A DNA stretch of 64,000 nt from contig CABMHR010000001.1 in assembly GCA_902386025.1 (NCBI GenBank), positions 99,741 through 163,740 of the forward strand. The letters run 5' to 3'. Position numbers and translations under genes: made by a program. Below are positions 4,822 to 57,054 of this stretch, piece by piece. Below the pieces are notes generated by a model that saw only the letters and a program-made list of their open reading frames with translations, was not told the DNA's origin and searched no databases. Positions within the stretch are counted from its first letter, which is position 1. The number at the start of each line of letters is the position of its first letter. This DNA is from an uncultured archaeon. Its GTDB lineage: Archaea; Nanobdellota; Nanobdellia; Pacearchaeales; GW2011-AR1.

Positions 4822-5437
4822 ATCCGTTTTCTAATTCATCTTTAACCCTATTCAAAAATTGAAGTGCTTTTTGACAATCTGCTACTCTGCTATCATATGA
4901 AAGGGTTAAATTAAATCTTTTTATAAAAAGAATTTCTGTGTCTTTACTTTCGAAATCTTCAAATTCCGAAGAAATAGAAATCATTGCGGATTGATTTTCA
5001 TAAATGGGAGGAATAATAGAATAAACTCCAAAAGAAAAGAGATTTGTTATAGAAAAACTACCATTTTGCTTCTCAGAATCTGATAATTCTCCATGAAGAT
5101 ATTTAAGAGCCATTTCCTTTATTTCTTTTGATAATTCTATCAAAGATTTTTGATCAGCATGTTTAATATTTATTATTTCTGAACCCCTCCCAATATTAAT
5201 AAAATATCCCAAATCAATTGAGGGATAGAGCATTATTCCATTATCAAATTTTGAATTAAGTTCTGGAAAATTTTTTAAATTTTTGCAAATAGAATAAATG
5301 ATAATGTCTCCGGGACTTAGATTATACTTCTCTTCGCTTTTAATCTTTTCTATTAAAGAATGGATATTCTTGCTTTTAATTTGAACCGTAAGTGTACTTG
5401 TTGGTCCAAATGATTTAAAAGATTCTTTATCTTCCAT
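4814..5437 (-). CDS. 2-oxoacid dehydrogenase E2 / CAT-fold acyltransferase catalytic-domain homologue (variant active site)
   Basis: FSITNLFSFGVYSIIPPIYENQSAMISI and LTLSYDSRVADCQKALQFLNRVKDELENG align by eye to the E2 motifs TISNlG...PIIn.Pq.AILg and LSyDHRviDGa.A..FL..lk..LE.P. DHR is DSR here. Confidence 0.6.
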   Translation of the reverse strand: MEDKESFKSFGPTSTLTVQIKSKNIHSLIEKIKSEEKYNLSPGDIIIYSICKNLKNFPELNSKFDNGIMLYPSIDLGYFINIGRGSEIINIKHADQKSLIELSKEIKEMALKYLHGELSDSEKQNGSFSITNLFSFGVYSIIPPIYENQSAMISISSEFEDFESKDTEILFIKRFNLTLSYDSRVADCQKALQFLNRVKDELENGFK

Positions 5438-28539: not shown

Positions 28540-29069
28540 ACAGTTTGCTTTGTTTCAAAAGCAAATATCTTTGTAACGCTGAAGAAATTTATTTTCCTCT
28601 TCATTTCAAAGTTCTCTTTTAATATTTTTAGAATTTCATCATAAGAAGTTATATGCTCTTTTGGAACTTCTGTCTTGCCTACAAACTTCCTCATTTTTCT
28701 TGAAATAAAATTTCCTGTGGGTATAGAGACAATAATTTCAAAATTATCATTCATCTTCTTGAAATCTCCAATTATTTTTTTTATTTCGGGAGCAGGGATG
28801 TGTTCAAGGACATCAAGGCAGAATATCTTTGTTGGTTTTACTTTCCTGTAATCTTTTACAAATGTTTTTTCTGGATTTATGTCATATCCTATAATATAAA
28901 ATTTTCTTAATTTATTTTCAAGCCATCCTGCCCCGCATCCAAAATCAAGAATTACATCCTCTTTTTTAAGATGAGCAAGCTTTACTGCAGCATTTACTTT
29001 CTGCCTGAAATATGTCTTTGTCAGCAGATTCTTGCTTTCATAAGTGTTTTCAAGAAGATTATTTTCCAT
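28536..29069 (-). CDS. Class I SAM-dependent methyltransferase
   Basis: ILDFGCGAGW (motif I), CLDVLEHIP. Confidence 0.65.
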   Translation of the reverse strand: MENNLLENTYESKNLLTKTYFRQKVNAAVKLAHLKKEDVILDFGCGAGWLENKLRKFYIIGYDINPEKTFVKDYRKVKPTKIFCLDVLEHIPAPEIKKIIGDFKKMNDNFEIIVSIPTGNFISRKMRKFVGKTEVPKEHITSYDEILKILKENFEMKRKINFFSVTKIFAFETKQTV

Positions 29070-29119
29070 TATGAAAATTCTCCTGAATTTTTATTTGTGC
29101 TGAACTTCTGTTCTGTCAT
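29067..29119 (-). promoter_or_regulatory. Hairpin + TAATG-coupled mini-ORF cassette, copy 1 (upstream of methyltransferase)
   Basis: The coding strand reads ATGACAGAACAGAAGTTCAGCACAAATAAAAATTCAGGAGAATTTTCATAATG. The mini-ORF MTEQKFSTNKNSGEFS (29119..29069) ends in a TAA that shares a base with the methyltransferase ATG. Hairpin at 29074-29091 (AAAATTC/GAATTTT stem). 38 nt are identical to 45817-45854. Confidence 0.5.
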
Positions 29120-29960
29120 TTTTTAGCTTTTCCCTGAATATTTTATTTAATTCAATAACTTTAAGGTTTTTCTTTTTTCCTTCTTCATTAAGAATATAAA
29201 TTCCATTCATTTCCCTGCATTTTGGATTATATCCATGCATAGCTTTGACAGGAATTCTTCCCTGCCAGTAATTTGGCAGTATTAAAACACTAGGATTTGC
29301 AAGAAAAATATAATCTCCGTATCTTTTGTCTTTCCAGTCAATCCATTCCCCGTCCTTTGAATTAAAATTTGGCTTCTCCCCCCAGTATCTTGCGAAGGTT
29401 GAATCAATCATGCAATCTTTTGTTTCAGGAACAGATATTATTTTTTTTATGTCTATCATTCCGTGGTCTGAAAGAATTATGTCAAATTTCAGCTTTGAAA
29501 CTCTTCTGTCTATTTCTCTTATTATTTTTTTTGTCTCTTCGCTTTTTGTTCCATATTTATGGGCAATTTTGTCAATTTCTCCTATGTAAAGATATTCTAC
29601 CCCCCTTATCTTCTCAAACGGCTTTCCTATTTCCGTATCAAATTTATAAAGTTTCTTCAGAGGGATATTTCCTGTTCTGAATAATCTTTTTCTTGACAAT
29701 AATCTCTGCAGATTGATAAGAATTTCAACAGGAAGCCTTCCCATCCATTGAACTTTTTTTGTCCATTTCAAGCGGGAATTTTCTTTCTTGTGGAAAAAAG
29801 CAAGCATATCATTTCCTCCGTAAAAAAAAGTTTTCATTCCTCCCTCAAAACCCAGAGGCATTTCAAGCTCCCCCCATTGAAATTTTTTTGTCAGATGGGA
29901 CAAATAAGGGGCATATTCAAGATACTCCGGCTTGAATGAATCAATCATTATAATCTTCAT
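29091..29960 (-). CDS. Alkaline-phosphatase-superfamily enzyme (nucleotide pyrophosphatase/phosphodiesterase- or phosphotransferase-like)
   Basis: N-terminal IIMIDSFKPEYL and later IILSDHGM resemble the metal-ligand motifs of the AP/NPP superfamily. Confidence 0.5.
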   Translation of the reverse strand: MKIIMIDSFKPEYLEYAPYLSHLTKKFQWGELEMPLGFEGGMKTFFYGGNDMLAFFHKKENSRLKWTKKVQWMGRLPVEILINLQRLLSRKRLFRTGNIPLKKLYKFDTEIGKPFEKIRGVEYLYIGEIDKIAHKYGTKSEETKKIIREIDRRVSKLKFDIILSDHGMIDIKKIISVPETKDCMIDSTFARYWGEKPNFNSKDGEWIDWKDKRYGDYIFLANPSVLILPNYWQGRIPVKAMHGYNPKCREMNGIYILNEEGKKKNLKVIELNKIFREKLKNDRTEVQHK

Positions 29961-33510: not shown

Positions 33511-34965
33511 CTATTTCACAAAATCCTTCAAATGTCCGAAAACTGCCTTTATCCCCTTAAAATTGAATTTAAAATCATTCCAGCTTCTTATATTCCTTGC
33601 CCTCTGAAAAATATAGGCGGGGGTTAAAAATATTGTATAAATTCTGCTGCAAATTCCTGCAACATCTCTGGCATCAGAGTTTTCTGTTCTCAGAACAGGC
33701 TCTCTCATATCATATCTTTCATATTCTAACGGATTAAATAAAAACCATTTATTCTCTTTTGCCTCTTTCCATAAAGGAGTTCCAGGATAGGGAACAAGAA
33801 CAGTTGCCTGCAGTAAATCAGCTTTTCCGCTTTGCATTAATTTTTTCGCAAGCTGGAATGTCCTCAATGCATCTTCTTTGGTTTCCCAAGGATATCCCAC
33901 TATCATTGTCAAGTGCACAGTAAGTCCTGCTTTCTTCGCCATTCTGCATCCTTCAAATATATCTTTAATTTTTATCCCCTTGTTTAATCTGTCCAATGTT
34001 TTTTGATTTGCACTTTCAAGTCCAAATTTAAGAAGCCTGAATCCTGCTTTTTTCATTAAATCAAATTCTTCTTGATTCAATGCCCCAAATCTCATATTGC
34101 AGGAATATTTTATCTTCCTGCTGTACCCTCTTTTTATCAATCCTTCACATAAATCTTTCAGCCATTTTCCAGTCATCAGGGTTCCAGAATCATCAAAGAT
34201 TTCTTTTGCATTATATTTCTCTATTAATATTCCAATTTCATTTAAAACATTTTCAACACTTCTGACTCTAAAGCAGGGAAATAAAATTGGCCACGCGCAG
34301 AACTTGCATTTTCCCCACCAGCAGTCTCTTCCAGACATAATATAAAAAAAAGGCTTTCCCTGCAAATTATATTCTTTTTCATAAAGCCCCCATTTTGTCA
34401 GCTCTCTGTCAATAAACGGAAGTTCGTCCAGATTATGCTTGAGGATAATTTTTCCTGAATTGATTATTCTGTCATTTTTTCTGTAATATATTCCCTTGGG
34501 GCAGTTTTTGCTTTTTTTCTTAATCCAGCTGCATAATTCCAGAAGACTAAAATCAAAATCCCCCCCGCACAAGACAAAATCTACTTTTGAATTTTTCATG
34601 CTTTCTTCTGGGAATGAAGTTGTGTGATCTCCCAATAATGCTATTTTCATTCTTGGGAATTTTTCTTTTAATGCATTAATAATCTTCCAATGTTGTTTTA
34701 TCACAGGAGTTTTTGTCTCAAAGGCAAATAAATCTGGATTCTCTTTTTCTATTCTTGATAGAAATTCCTTCCAAGAAAGTTTTTCTGCTATTGCATCAAG
34801 CCAGCATACTTCATAATTATTTTTTTTCAAAAGAGTTGCAGCACTTCCAAGTATAACGGGAAACATATAGCTGGGATTTGAAAACCACTGAAACTGCCTG
34901 TTCTGGCTTAGCAGTGCAACTCCTTTTTTTGAGAATGTTGGGGGATATCCTATAATTATTTTCAT
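33511..34965 (-). CDS. B12-binding-domain radical SAM enzyme with atypical CX4CX2C cluster motif
   Basis: The cobalamin-domain-like N-terminus is followed by SGRDCWWGKCKFCAW (Cys215/220/223; 34297-34323). Confidence 0.7.
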   Translation of the reverse strand: MKIIIGYPPTFSKKGVALLSQNRQFQWFSNPSYMFPVILGSAATLLKKNNYEVCWLDAIAEKLSWKEFLSRIEKENPDLFAFETKTPVIKQHWKIINALKEKFPRMKIALLGDHTTSFPEESMKNSKVDFVLCGGDFDFSLLELCSWIKKKSKNCPKGIYYRKNDRIINSGKIILKHNLDELPFIDRELTKWGLYEKEYNLQGKPFFYIMSGRDCWWGKCKFCAWPILFPCFRVRSVENVLNEIGILIEKYNAKEIFDDSGTLMTGKWLKDLCEGLIKRGYSRKIKYSCNMRFGALNQEEFDLMKKAGFRLLKFGLESANQKTLDRLNKGIKIKDIFEGCRMAKKAGLTVHLTMIVGYPWETKEDALRTFQLAKKLMQSGKADLLQATVLVPYPGTPLWKEAKENKWFLFNPLEYERYDMREPVLRTENSDARDVAGICSRIYTIFLTPAYIFQRARNIRSWNDFKFNFKGIKAVFGHLKDFVK

Positions 34966-45037: not shown

Positions 45038-45819
45038 TCTTCTTTCTCCTTGTTTGTTTTCTTTAAAGCATCAATTGTCGCTCTTATAAGATTGACAGTT
45101 GTTCCCTTTGTTCCGAATGTCTTGCTGTAAACATCTTTTATTCCTGCAAGTTTCAGAACTTTTTTCATCTCCCCCGCAACTACTAATCCTGTTCCTTGAG
45201 GTGCAGGTATTAATGTTACTCTTACACTTCCTGATTTTCCTGTTATCTTGAATGGAATGCTGTGTTCTTCATTGCAAGCGCAGTCAAAACTTGCGCACGC
45301 TCTTCTTATTTTTATAATTGCTAATTTTGCCTGCCTTATTGATTTGTCTCTTGCAGGAAGAGTTTCTTTTGCATGCCCCATTCCTATTCCAACATGCCCG
45401 TTTCCGTCTCCAACAACTGCAAGCGTTGAGAAAGTAGGAACATTTCCTTCTTTTGTTTTTCTCTGCGTCTGCTTCCACGCTCTTCTTTTTCCTCCCCCGA
45501 ATTTTCCTTTTGACTGCCCTATGAAAAGCAGGTCAGACTGAACATTTATTAGGGAATCAACAATCTGCTCTTCCAAGATTTTCCTTTTTCCTTCGAGAAT
45601 TTCATCTATGTTTTTTATTTTCTTTTCCTTTACTTCTTTTCCAAGTTTTGTTTTTGGAACCCAAGAGGCAAGTTTTGATGCTGCTTCTCTTTCTGCTTCC
45701 TTTTCTCTTTCTGTTCTCTTGTCAACAGCAACCAAATCTTTTCCGATTTCCTTTTCAAGAAGTTCCTGGCTGATTTCTTCAGCTGTTCTCTTGTCAACTT
45801 TTTTTGCTTTCTCTGTCAT
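45034..45819 (-). CDS. rps5: 30S ribosomal protein uS5 (with K/E-rich N-terminal extension)
   Basis: VVGDGNGHVGIGMGHAKE, TLIPAPQGTGLV. Confidence 0.9.
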   Translation of the reverse strand: MTEKAKKVDKRTAEEISQELLEKEIGKDLVAVDKRTEREKEAEREAASKLASWVPKTKLGKEVKEKKIKNIDEILEGKRKILEEQIVDSLINVQSDLLFIGQSKGKFGGGKRRAWKQTQRKTKEGNVPTFSTLAVVGDGNGHVGIGMGHAKETLPARDKSIRQAKLAIIKIRRACASFDCACNEEHSIPFKITGKSGSVRVTLIPAPQGTGLVVAGEMKKVLKLAGIKDVYSKTFGTKGTTVNLIRATIDALKKTNKEKEE

Positions 45820-45872
45820 TATGAAAATTCTCCTGAATTTTTATTTGTGCTGAAATTTCCTATTTCTGTCAT
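45817..45872 (-). promoter_or_regulatory. Hairpin + TAATG-coupled mini-ORF cassette, copy 2 (fills the rpl18-rps5 gap)
   Basis: Mini-ORF MTEIGNFSTNKNSGEFS (45872..45819). Its ATG lies 1 nt after the rpl18 stop and its TAA overlaps the rps5 ATG. Hairpin at 45824-45841. 45817-45854 is identical to 29067-29104. Confidence 0.5.
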
Positions 45873-51019: not shown

Positions 51020-51065
51020 TTTACAAACTCCTGTTGGAGAACGAATGAAAATATTTTATTTGCTT

Positions 51066-51260
51066 TCATTCTCCTTCCTCCGTAATTTTCTCTCCGTAAA
51101 TTCTCATTGGTATCCTTTTTCCATTCTCAACTGAATAATCCCCGTCATTTTCTTCTGCTGTAAAATTTTCAATTGGGATGAATTCGTAATTTCTTGTTGG
51201 TTTGTTAAATTTTCTTCTTTCTCTTTCAAGTTCTTTTTGTGTCATTTCAATTCTTTCCAT
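51066..51260 (-). CDS. Orphan small ORF B (64 aa) inserted between rps17 and rpl14
   Basis: MERIEMTQKELERERRKFNKPTRNYEFIPIENFTAEENDGDYSVENGKRIPMRIYGEKITEEGE. Its ATG shares a base with the rps17 stop (TAATG). A 46-nt spacer containing GGAG precedes rpl14. Confidence 0.6.
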   Translation of the reverse strand: MERIEMTQKELERERRKFNKPTRNYEFIPIENFTAEENDGDYSVENGKRIPMRIYGEKITEEGE

Positions 51261-51686: not shown

Positions 51687-51980
51687 TTAGTCAATCGACT
51701 CTGGGTTAAATCCAAGCTTCACAAGGACTTCTTTTATCTTTTTCCTGTGATCTCCCTGAAGTTCTACCTCGCTGTCTCTGTAAGTTCCGCCGCACGCAAG
51801 CTCGTTTTTAAGGGCTTTTGCGACTTCTTTCACATCGACTCCACTTAGTCCGCTGACAATAGTGACATATTTGCCGTATCTTTTCTTCTCGGCAGTCACT
51901 TTGATATTCTGCGAACCCTTAGCGATTTTTTCACACACGCAGGCTTGTTTTGGAAGCCCGCACTTTGGACATATTTCCAT
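51687..51980 (-). CDS. Translation initiation factor aSUI1 (aIF1)
   Basis: N-terminal Zn-knuckle CPKCGLPKQACVC, then KYVTIVSGL...ELACGGTYRDSEVELQGDHRKKI (SUI1 fold signature). Confidence 0.85.
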   Translation of the reverse strand: MEICPKCGLPKQACVCEKIAKGSQNIKVTAEKKRYGKYVTIVSGLSGVDVKEVAKALKNELACGGTYRDSEVELQGDHRKKIKEVLVKLGFNPESID

Positions 51981-52039
51981 TATGAAATTTGTTCTGCAAA
52001 TTTTATTTGTGTTGAACGAATTTTAATGAGTTCTGTCAT
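51978..52039 (-). promoter_or_regulatory. Hairpin + TAATG-coupled mini-ORF cassette, copy 3 (diverged; fills the rpl29-aSUI1 gap)
   Basis: Mini-ORF MTELIKIRSTQIKFAEQIS (52039..51980). Its ATG lies 2 nt after the rpl29 stop and its TAA overlaps the aSUI1 ATG. The hairpin at 51985-52003 (AAATTTG/CAAATTT) keeps pairing through two compensatory changes relative to copies 1 and 2. Confidence 0.5.
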
Positions 52040-52041
52040 GT

Positions 52042-52254
52042 TTATTTATCGTTCCCAACCTTCTTGAAATTTTTATTTTCTAATCTGTTGAGTGTTAATA
52101 TTCGTGCAATTGTCTTCTTTATTTCTTTTGCTTTTGAAGTTCCTGACTTTGAAGCATTTGCTCTTGTTTTTATAAGTTCAAATTTCAATTCGTCTATTTT
52201 TTTCATTCTTTCTTCCTTGCTCATTTTGTTTATATCTTTTATTTTTAATTTCAT
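52042..52254 (-). CDS. rpl29: 50S ribosomal protein uL29
   Basis: KMSKEERMKKIDELKFELIKTRA. Confidence 0.85.
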   Translation of the reverse strand: MKLKIKDINKMSKEERMKKIDELKFELIKTRANASKSGTSKAKEIKKTIARILTLNRLENKNFKKVGNDK

Positions 52255-55986: not shown

Positions 55987-56924
55987 CTTAACTCCAATAA
56001 TTCAAAATTCTTTTTTAATTGTTTTTTTGTTGCTCTCAACGGAGAAGTAACAAGCAGCTGCCTCTTTGCAGGGCCCTGAACACTTCCTGCTGTGATTATA
56101 TAATCTGTCTTGATGTCTCCGAAATTTCTTATTCCTTTAAATTTGTCCTCTGCTTTTCCTATTCCAATTATTTTGTTGTTGTAAGTAACTCTTGTGAACA
56201 TTCCAATCTGTCCTGCCATTGGCGCTCTGAAAGTTGTTCTTCCGGGATGGAATGAACCCAATGCTCCTGGGCGTCTCTGTCCTTTTTCTGACTTATGAGA
56301 TTTAAGAGTTATTCCAAATCTTTTTACAGGCCCCTGAAATCCTTTTCCCTTTGTCAGTCCTCTGAAATCAACAAGGTTCCCCTTTTCAAAAATATTTGAA
56401 ATCAAAATTTCTTTTCCTAAATTTTCCTTGATGAATTTTATCTTGTCTTCAAAATCTCCGCCGATTGCAATCTCGCTCAAATCAGGAGTTTTCTTTATGT
56501 TTGTTTTCTTTACAACAGAATAGCACAATGCTCTTGCGTCATCATAATCTCCCTTGAATTCTTCTGTCTTCTTTGCGTTCTTTGGGAATTTTACTTTTCT
56601 CTTTAATTCCTTGTCAATGTTTTCGGCAAGAACATCTTTTGCAACTTTTCCATTTTTGTATAATCTTACAGAGAATATTTTCATAGCAGGGCATTCAAGA
56701 ATTGTAACCGGAACAACAATTTTCTTCCCTTTAGTCATTGAATCAGGAGTATCATCCTTTACAAAAGCAGAAGCCATTCCTGCCTTGTAGCAGATAAATC
56801 CTTTAAGCTTTTTATTAGAATCAGACTTTACAGCATTCCAGTTAGGACTAGGCAGAATCTTTTTGGCTCGTTTTCTCGGCCAGTACTGCATGCTTCCTTT
56901 TCTTGGTGAATTTGGTGGTGCCAT
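55983..56924 (-). CDS. rpl3: 50S ribosomal protein uL3
   Basis: MAPPNSPRKGSMQYWPRKRAKK..., GKGFQGPVKRFG. Confidence 0.95.
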   Translation of the reverse strand: MAPPNSPRKGSMQYWPRKRAKKILPSPNWNAVKSDSNKKLKGFICYKAGMASAFVKDDTPDSMTKGKKIVVPVTILECPAMKIFSVRLYKNGKVAKDVLAENIDKELKRKVKFPKNAKKTEEFKGDYDDARALCYSVVKKTNIKKTPDLSEIAIGGDFEDKIKFIKENLGKEILISNIFEKGNLVDFRGLTKGKGFQGPVKRFGITLKSHKSEKGQRRPGALGSFHPGRTTFRAPMAGQIGMFTRVTYNNKIIGIGKAEDKFKGIRNFGDIKTDYIITAGSVQGPAKRQLLVTSPLRATKKQLKKNFELLELR

Positions 56925-57054
56925 ATTTTATATTTGTCAATAGCGGATATCATTTTAACTAACCCTGGATAAAATATGTAGAAAAAACAGGTTTTTAAAT
57001 GTTATGAAGACAACCGATAGACAGATTTTTAAAATATATCCTGCTTATTAAACG

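Follow-up and report, generated by a model that had tools for sequence, protein, structure and literature searches.

In caliciviruses, motif 1 of the TURBS, short for termination upstream ribosomal binding site, pairs with helix 26 of 18S rRNA. Upstream open reading frames (ORFs), leader peptides and hairpins that occlude the Shine-Dalgarno (SD) sequence, as in attenuators and fourU thermometers, are known regulators near gene starts, and palindromic repeats that survive inside expressed sequence are known as Rickettsia palindromic elements and as miniature inverted-repeat transposable element (MITE)-, repetitive extragenic palindromic (REP)- or Correia-type repeats. In rabbit haemorrhagic disease virus (RHDV), reinitiation requires the duplex that flanks the rRNA-complementary motif of the TURBS (PMC6393290). 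In Haloferax and E. coli, termination-reinitiation (TeRe) between neighbouring genes needs overlapping or near-adjacent ORFs (PMC6728339; PMC10666635), and an untranslated spacer of ~20 nt almost abolishes the coupling (PMC10666635). Here, we describe an element with points of resemblance to each of these systems, found on the minus strand between rpL29 and aSUI1 in a 64,000-nucleotide stretch of contig CABMHR010000001.1 from an uncultured archaeon (this whole stretch is called the window). On balance, we favour the view that the element, which we call copy C, belongs, in diverged form, to a large family of ~50-nt translated leader or intercistronic cassettes in Pacearchaeota/Woesearchaeota-type DPANN archaea, and that these cassettes relay translation from one gene to the next.

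Copy C begins 2 nt past the rpL29 stop. The minus strand from 52039 to 51978 reads ATGACAGAACTCATTAAAATTCGTTCAACACAAATAAAATTTGCAGAACAAATTTCATAATG, exactly as the first-pass annotation of this DNA had given it, and the parts named there were all recovered: a mini-ORF, MTELIKIRSTQIKFAEQIS, whose TAA (51982..51980) overlaps the aSUI1 ATG; a stem AAATTTG/CAAATTT in place of the AAAATTC/GAATTTT of two further copies, A and B; and a loop CAGAA in place of their AGGA. The parts of the element and its flanking genes are as follows.

51978..52039, minus strand: cassette copy C, the whole rpL29|aSUI1 spacer element (62 bases), from the mini-ORF ATG to the aSUI1 ATG; covariance model (CM) E = 1.1e-6
52039..51981, minus strand: inserted unit of copy C, 59 nt, delimited by empty-site comparison with locus L207 and other relatives
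51980..52039, minus strand: copy C mini-ORF, 19 codons plus TAA, from the sequence and from family-wide maintenance of the frame
52014..52033, minus strand: position of hairpin 1 (HP1), GAAC 52033..52030 and GTTC 52017..52014 with the loop enlarged to 12 nt, from the family RNAalifold consensus and its compensatory changes
52004..52014, minus strand: conserved core, CAACACAAATA in copy C (CAGCACAAATA in A, B and most of the family), from the sequence
51985..52003, minus strand: hairpin 2 (HP2), AAATTTG 52003..51997, loop CAGAA 51996..51992, CAAATTT 51991..51985, from the alignment and CM
51978..51982, minus strand: TAATG stop-start overlap of mini-ORF and aSUI1, from the sequence
51687..51980, minus strand: aSUI1, 97 aa, the gene served by copy C (Pfam PF01253, E = 5.4e-22)
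52042..52254, minus strand: rpL29, 70 aa, the upstream gene (Pfam PF00831)

Both flanking genes sit within a long minus-strand ribosomal-protein operon of a genome with 32.6% G+C, and the closest relatives are metagenome-assembled genomes (MAGs) of Pacearchaeota, Woesearchaeota and Nanoarchaeota. HP1 is weak in copy C and is not part of its minimum free energy (MFE) fold, and the HP2 loop of copy C holds no GGAG.

The two other copies lie on the same strand of the window:

45817..45872, minus strand: cassette copy B, in the rpL18|rpS5 spacer, mini-ORF MTEIGNFSTNKNSGEFS; from the sequence, CM E = 3.5e-8
29067..29119, minus strand: cassette copy A, flanked by a phosphodiesterase-like and a methyltransferase gene, mini-ORF MTEQKFSTNKNSGEFS; from the sequence, CM E = 3.5e-8

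In copy B, HP2 is formed by AAAATTC (45841..45835) and GAATTTT (45830..45824) around the loop AGGA, and a GGAG stands 10 nt upstream of the rpS5 ATG; in copy A, HP2 occupies 29091..29074 on the minus strand. The terminal 38 nt of A and B are identical, and all three copies end in a TAATG overlap (51982..51978 in C, 45821..45817 in B, 29071..29067 in A). The inverted repeat AAAATTC/GAATTTT occurs twice in the window against 0.13 occurrences expected, and a covariance-model scan of the window recovered the three copies alone (E = 3.5e-8, 3.5e-8 and 1.1e-6). Its next best match, at 4970..5006, has E = 1.8 and was rejected as a further copy, as was ATGACAGAA at 34475, which lies inside a 484-aa ORF. 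The phosphodiesterase-like ORF (29091..29960, minus strand) runs 28 nt into copy A and stops at a TAA within the core (29093..29091), so that its final ten codons are cassette sequence. The unit provides upstream genes with stop codons in more than one frame, namely the TGA of ATGA and the TAA of the ATAA core.

For the stem, the first-pass annotation had claimed that two positions changed on both sides. That is what we find: C differs from A and B at pair 4 (A-T to T-A) and at the loop-closing pair 7 (C-G to G-C), in a register that is gapless both in a MAFFT alignment (A2) and in the CM alignment. When four random substitutions were placed over the 14 stem positions, all 7 of 7 pairs were kept in 0.9% of simulations. 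Taken alone, the comparison of C with A and B is therefore suggestive of compensation. The T-A variant of pair 4 also occurs in family members L134, L149 and L170, and copy C may have inherited it from its subfamily instead of acquiring it in this genome. Simple inversion of the palindrome centre was considered as a source of the changes and, on inspection, the sequences do not fit it. HP2 is energetically marginal, at -2.4 kcal/mol in C and -3.2 in A and B. In the comparison with shuffled controls, proposed earlier for the three spacers, local segments of 31-32 nt gave z = -3.2 in C and -4.4 in A and B, but the whole spacers gave z = -1.0 to -1.5 only. In copy C, an extra segment, CATTAAAATT (52019..52028, minus strand), can pair with AATTT/TAATG (51978..51989), the aSUI1 start codon included; this is how the whole spacer folds at its MFE (-5.7 kcal/mol), a value no better than that of shuffles (z = -1).

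More than 100 distinct copies were gathered from related DPANN genomes and metagenomes. The metagenomes were scanned with a pattern that leaves the inner stem open and the outermost pair free, CACAAATAMAAA N6-20 TTKCATAATG (M = A/C, K = G/T). At least 120 stretches matched, and among the matches listed ~120 are genuine cassettes and ~14 are chance; the metagenome-derived counts below rest on these listed matches. The pattern demanded five A's after ACAAAT, so sequences resembling copy C could not match it; a form suited to such variants is ACACAAATAAAATTTN{3,9}AAATTTCATAATG.

In 91 distinct metagenome copies aligned to the CM, standard pairs fill 93.8% of the stem cells compared with 73.7% after shuffling, both sides have changed at 5 of the 7 pairs, double changes occupy 112 cells where 41.7 are expected, and the covariation score is 0.392 versus 0.106. 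When the 3′ partner is shifted by a single column, pairing falls to 55-69%. A set of 19 distinct copies from related loci found independently of the pattern behaves likewise, both sets being 94-95% paired versus 74-78% when shuffled. Since two of the alignments (A3 and A4) were fitted to the structure, three further checks were added. RNAalifold, run on a structure-neutral MAFFT alignment, returned HP2 together with a second helix, HP1, just past the mini-ORF start, with compensatory changes at 6 of 10 pairs. An alignment-free arm swap, in which the 5′ half of one copy was joined to the 3′ half of another, gave a mean of -1.97 kcal/mol for real hairpins and -0.75 for chimeras (z = -9.6; 0 of 5000 permutations). 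Finally, the outermost HP2 pair, although free in the pattern, occurs as C-G (39 distinct copies) or as A-T (22) and in no copy as A-G or C-T; chance matches of the same pattern do include A-G. The expectation under which the first-pass annotation would have been wrong, that stem positions vary without compensation once more homologues are added, is thus the opposite of what the 91 and 19 copies display. HP2 is maintained by compensatory substitutions.

Complementarity of this kind could arise as a by-product, either by chance in A/T-rich sequence or from the Lys (AAA) and Phe (TTT) codons of a conserved micro-protein. The arms are indeed mostly A-runs and T-runs, the stems are weak, and many of the peptides end K-x-G-[DEG]-F-[AS]. 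However, the inner positions that are not simple A- or T-runs covary as well (TC/GA, CC/GG, C/G, TT/AA, and G/C in copy C), swapping arms destroys the pairing, and the 5′ arm is read in different frames (STNKNS, SAQIQN, QHKYKT), so that no conserved peptide runs across it. We regard a by-product as very improbable.

The first-pass annotation had overlooked that the frame of the mini-ORF is itself under selection. A recognisable 5′ start is present in 83 distinct units, of which 70 keep the frame; each of these 70 terminates exactly at the TAA of TAATG. The distances from ATG to core and from core to downstream ATG each take all residues modulo 3 and are coupled so that together they preserve the frame. 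With 18, 29 and 23 units, the in-frame classes add up to 70, whereas shuffling gives 27.7 +/- 4.3 of 82 and did not attain 70 in any of 20000 trials. As a consequence of this coupling, the ORF remains open with one nucleotide core occurring in each of the three frames: CAGCACAAATA is translated as STN.., SAQ.. or QHK.. in different copies, on which ground a conserved micro-protein was rejected. Copies using the frame CAC AAA TAx carry C at x (ATAC) and so avoid a TAA stop. The pattern of lengths indicates that the mini-ORF is selected for openness, not for its peptide, and that its frame is kept by compensating indels.

The 5′ end of the mini-ORF is placed in one of two ways. The mini-ORF ATG lies -4, -1 or 0 to +7 nt from the upstream stop in 60 of 71 operon-internal copies, and about half of the mini-ORF ATGs are preceded by SD-like 4-mers. 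Promoter-proximal copies, which have no upstream gene, display a peak of TATA-like TTTWWAW at -28..-25 from the mini-ORF ATG (12 occurrences), and the interval from -24 to -17 has none. Of 24 promoter-proximal copies, 10 have a TATA-like site whose centre falls between -31 and -22, compared with 5 of 70 internal ones. The box resembles TTTAAAA(A)CC, a motif found ahead of tRNA-Ser and rpL3 in the window. At ~26 nt before the mini-ORF ATG, it would be the archaeal signature of a leaderless transcript starting at that AUG.

These boxes also bear on a different reading, in which the A/T-rich core is a B recognition element (BRE)/TATA promoter for a leaderless mRNA of the downstream gene, the palindrome lying between TATA box and start site. 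A core of the form AAATAAAAA upstream of the ATG would be compatible with such a promoter, and copy C, at the boundary of an S10-like and an spc-like operon, is at a plausible place for an internal one. However, the core is centred 20-23 nt from the downstream ATG, not 26-27 nt; its commonest variant, ATACAAAAC, is a poor TATA box; the likely promoters of the clade read TTTAAAA(A)CC (upstream of tRNA-Ser and rpL3); and the boxes of promoter-proximal copies stand 26 nt before the mini-ORF ATG, not before the main gene. The conserved SD and the open frame would also be left without explanation. A promoter is highly unlikely, and the core's geometry and the clade's own TATA consensus led us to reject it.

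Across the family, the cassette opens with an ATG on or a few nt from the upstream stop (ATGA, TAATG, TAAAATG), continues through HP1, the conserved linker CAGCACAAAUA and HP2, and closes with a stop that overlaps the downstream AUG (UAAUG). GGAG-type 4-mers stand 9-11 nt upstream of the ATG in 46 of 72 distinct HP2 segments, a spacing within the 5-11 nt range of ordinary genes in the window's operon. The loop of A and B, AGGA(G), is the SD of the downstream gene, a point absent from the first-pass annotation, and it has been lost in copy C. With GGAG in the loop and CATAATG outside the stem, the hairpin is not of the SD-sequestering or RNA thermometer type. One subfamily, MKNKFFKDTK, lacks the core and keeps the ORF, HP2 and TAATG.

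Longer and compound forms also occur. Long-form cassettes of 93-135 nt carry one of at least four conserved inserts between HP1 and core, each insert a hairpin, and their mini-ORF stays open through the insert for 31-44 codons (examples are L083, L031:5867-5973, L090, L128, L148 and L176; L129, L139, L142, L159 and L192; L005:6950-7044, L092, L102 and L168; L107, L155 and L166). Whole units are found in tandem, each TAATG being the start of the next unit, in L161:2840-3030, L195, L090, L003:6256-6423, L133:887-992 and L200:1015-1117; L161 holds three to four identical units with a 53-nt period.

Two hairpins joined by CAGCACAAAUA might instead be recognised by a protein or RNA, perhaps a translation factor or a ribosomal protein that regulates its own synthesis, in a regulon made up mainly of translation genes, with the mini-ORF secondary. 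Conservation of the core as nucleotides whatever its reading frame, the covarying two-hairpin architecture, and enrichment of downstream genes for ribosomal proteins, prefoldin, RNA polymerase subunits, SecY and exosome all point that way. However, the downstream genes cover 82 Pfam families, including transporters and metabolic enzymes, the element has no Rfam match, the MKNKFFKDTK subfamily does without the core while retaining ORF, HP2 and TAATG, and a pure binding site does not account for maintenance of the frame. We therefore consider this explanation unlikely.

The distribution of the cassette was evaluated in 80 related loci retrieved via the SUI1 protein, in nearly all of which the rpL29 stop codon adjoins the aSUI1 start codon. 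Searches with a profile built from the three copies of the window (nhmmer, CM) located the cassette at other places in ten of these loci (10 of 82 related r-protein loci in all), always on the gene strand and always with its terminal (G/T)CATAATG placed on the following gene's start codon. Among genomes, at least nine junctions of one operon are occupied (L23|L2, L2|S19, S19|L22, L22|S3, S3|L29, L29|SUI1, L24|S4e, L18|S5, L15|SecY), several metagenome contigs hold three to five copies, and some hold tandem arrays with a 53-nt period. In a context-unbiased set, the downstream genes are often ribosomal (S3, L22, S9, S5, L15, L19e, S4, L23, L29, S13, S28e), and others encode prefoldin, Rpb4, SecY and an exosome subunit, with 82 Pfam families in total.

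At the aSUI1 start itself, the rpL29-aSUI1 gap is 2-4 nt in the eleven closest relatives by SUI1 (89-94% identity). We found no orthologue of copy C among the closest SUI1 homologues, each of which has an empty site, and the metagenome pattern was of a form that sequences like copy C could not match. The empty site in L207 reads CATAAATAAAC|ATGGAAATATGT, and the window reads GATAAATAAAC|59 nt|ATGGAAATATGT. From this comparison, copy C is a recent 59-nt insertion exactly at the aSUI1 ATG, in this lineage alone; the mini-ORF ATG now stands where aSUI1 originally began, and aSUI1 comes after it via TAATG. The ATG repeat flanking copy C belongs both to the unit and to the target start codon. Upstream of the insertion, the 3′ tail of rpL29 in most relatives (L001-L080, e.g., L067, L012 and L015; L203-L209) forms a hairpin CTCAAC...(GGAG)GTTGAG, whose 3′ arm places GGAGGT ~20 nt upstream of the aSUI1 ATG and whose stems vary complementarily between genomes; the window's version (52052..52090, minus strand) is degraded to CTCAACAGATT...AAGGTTGGG.

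An insertion history of this kind raises the possibility that the cassette is chiefly a selfish or duplicative repeat, that its hairpin matters in DNA, as a palindrome required for copying or insertion or as one whose perfection is due to intrastrand template switching (quasi-palindrome correction) and not to selection on an RNA structure, and that the open frame and TAATG end are merely conditions for a tolerated insertion in an operon. Occupancy is patchy, at nine or more junctions of one operon in different genomes; copy C is missing from all close relatives, where the site is cleanly empty; identical copies occur within a genome (two in L019, and the 38 nt common to A and B); tandem arrays are present in L161, L195 and L090; 16% of copies are decayed; there is no excess of G.U over A.C; and the stem of copy C was kept despite loss of the SD. 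Dispersed copies with presence/absence polymorphism are also what MITE-type elements display. The terminal inverted repeats and target-site duplication of such elements are, however, not seen here: the ends have merely ATGA..TCAT in common, there is no clear target-site duplication, and no transposase is associated. Every copy is co-oriented with the following gene and ends on its ATG, which is unexpected for a strand-symmetric DNA signal, and orthologous junctions such as S19|L22 and L22|S3 carry the cassette in many genomes, with stems that differ yet remain complementary, which argues for long-term maintenance. A chiefly selfish role has, in our estimate, a real though small chance of being right; it is compatible with a relay function and does not exclude it.

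A few gene starts on the minus strand of the window match cassette subfamilies, namely rpL22 (53525) with ATGACAGAA, rpS5 (45819) with ATGACAGAG and rpL24 (50374) with ATGAAAAACAAATTC, the last resembling the MKNKFF subfamily. The matches are a hint that cassette 5′ ends might be derived from duplicated gene starts. The rpL3 leader (56922..56953, minus strand) has ATGATATCCGCTATTGACAAATATAAAAT immediately before the rpL3 ATG and contains a cassette-like ACAAATA motif, with 29 nt from ATG to ATG and with neither HP2 nor TAATG; a TTTAAAAACC box stands ~70 nt upstream of the rpL3 ATG. The S17|L14 spacer (51020..51065, minus strand) holds a different intergenic element, with a conserved sequence, ATTTTC..TCATTCGT..CAGGAGT.TG.AAATG, in common with L082:3739-3789. 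In the window, it follows a 64-aa ORF (51066..51260), and no Pfam match was obtained for the 62-aa gene that occupies this place in relative L081.

Returning to the cassette as a translated relay, its arrangement suggests that it probably passes translation to the downstream gene by termination-reinitiation. Ribosomes would translate the mini-ORF, open HP2 and reach termination on the start codon of the downstream gene, where reinitiation would be aided by the SD shown on HP2; in promoter-proximal copies, the mini-ORF would head a leaderless mRNA. Because coupling is almost lost across an untranslated spacer of ~20 nt, a 50-nt insert can keep it only if translated from gene end to gene start, which is the property that the family conserves; such an insert would then be tolerated in a tightly coupled operon without loss of translational coupling. 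In copy C, where ORF, HP2 and UAAUG were kept and GGAG was lost, translation of aSUI1 may depend on reinitiation alone.

Several observations weigh against this reading. HP2 is weak across the family (0 to -6 kcal/mol, with a mean of -2.0 at 37 C that becomes -4.9 at 15 C), and when the copy C spacer is folded as a whole, its MFE structure uses another pairing. Copy C and ~15% of the family have no SD in the loop, so SD display cannot be the sole reason for the stem; of the 83 units, 13 fall out of frame or stop early; and the model does not explain the conserved core CAGCACAAATA. As to covariation, the copies are related to each other, so that the shuffle statistics overstate independence. 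The first-pass annotation had seen in the covariation the signature of a functional RNA structure. Pairing, arm swap and RNAalifold uphold the covariation, and action at the level of RNA is not singled out by it, since G.U mismatches (5) and A.C mismatches (6) among ~520 cells are too few to separate RNA-level from DNA-level pairing.

The proposed relay shares with TeRe pairs (Huber et al., 2019, PMC6728339; Huber et al., 2023, PMC10666635) the co-directional ORFs, the UAAUG at the 3′ end of the cassette and the ATGA or near-zero distance at its 5′ end, as well as an SD within the upstream ORF a few nt before the restart codon. Overlap of stop and start by 4 or 1 nt (ATGA, TAATG/TGATG), as in such pairs, is present in A, B and C. 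In contrast to TeRe pairs, the upstream partner is no gene, being an ORF of 16-19 codons without a conserved peptide, carried on a repeat, which would act as a relay to a gene either from another real gene or from a leaderless 5′ end.

As in TURBS, an rRNA-complementary motif lies between complementary segments just upstream of the stop-start, and compensatory changes preserve the duplex. A motif between paired segments is found in A, B and the 46 of 72 HP2 segments; copy C has CAGAA instead. TURBS are, however, eukaryotic-viral and ~80 nt long, whereas the cassette has a stem of 5-7 bp and an ordinary SD as its motif, absent in copy C. The resemblance is one of proposed mechanism only, not of homology or membership. 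Leader peptides and attenuators likewise combine a short ORF with a small hairpin directly upstream of a gene start; unlike them, the cassette leaves its SD unpaired in the loop and has no terminator/antiterminator fold, regulatory codon run or conserved peptide. With Rickettsia palindromic elements and MITE-, REP- or Correia-type repeats it shares being short, multi-copy, polymorphic in presence and absence, hairpin-bearing and compatible with local translation. It differs from them in lacking terminal inverted repeats and target-site duplication, in lying strictly in gene orientation and exactly at the start codon, and in bringing its own start, stop and SD.

Tentatively, and with less confidence than we place in the relay, the cassette might be regarded as a portable, self-propagating translation-initiation module. 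Such a module could be inserted before any start codon and translated in any frame that its indels allow; it would start by reinitiation or as a leaderless AUG and deliver the ribosome, via a hairpin-displayed SD, at UAAUG. It would then be a prokaryotic counterpart of TURBS spread through Pacearchaeota-type DPANN genomes.

At the Rfam gathering threshold, the window holds tRNA-Ser alone, and permissive scans (E up to 10) of the B and C spacers gave chance-level scores of 9-18 bits compared with thresholds of 39-130. Weak antisense Rfam matches to C/D-box snoRNA (E = 2-4) were discarded, since proper C boxes are absent. Full-text literature searches returned no description of such an element in DPANN archaea. 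The cassette joins a short upstream ORF, a stop-start overlap, an SD, a hairpin and a dispersed repeat, each a known principle, in a combination that we have not found described. To our knowledge, nothing experimental has been reported on gene expression signals in Pacearchaeota and Woesearchaeota, which are uncultured.

The cassette family is a concrete, widespread and testable cis-element, with more than 100 distinct copies that stand mostly before ribosomal and other core genes. For annotation, cassette spacers should be neither called genes nor left as anonymous intergenic DNA, and the unit could serve as a synthetic coupling element. The family illustrates selection on an open reading frame without selection on its peptide. 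As proposed here, the cassette would couple leaderless or reinitiating translation to initiation of the SD type, and the family would show a route by which insertions may invade the tightly coupled ribosomal-protein operons of these archaea without polar effects.

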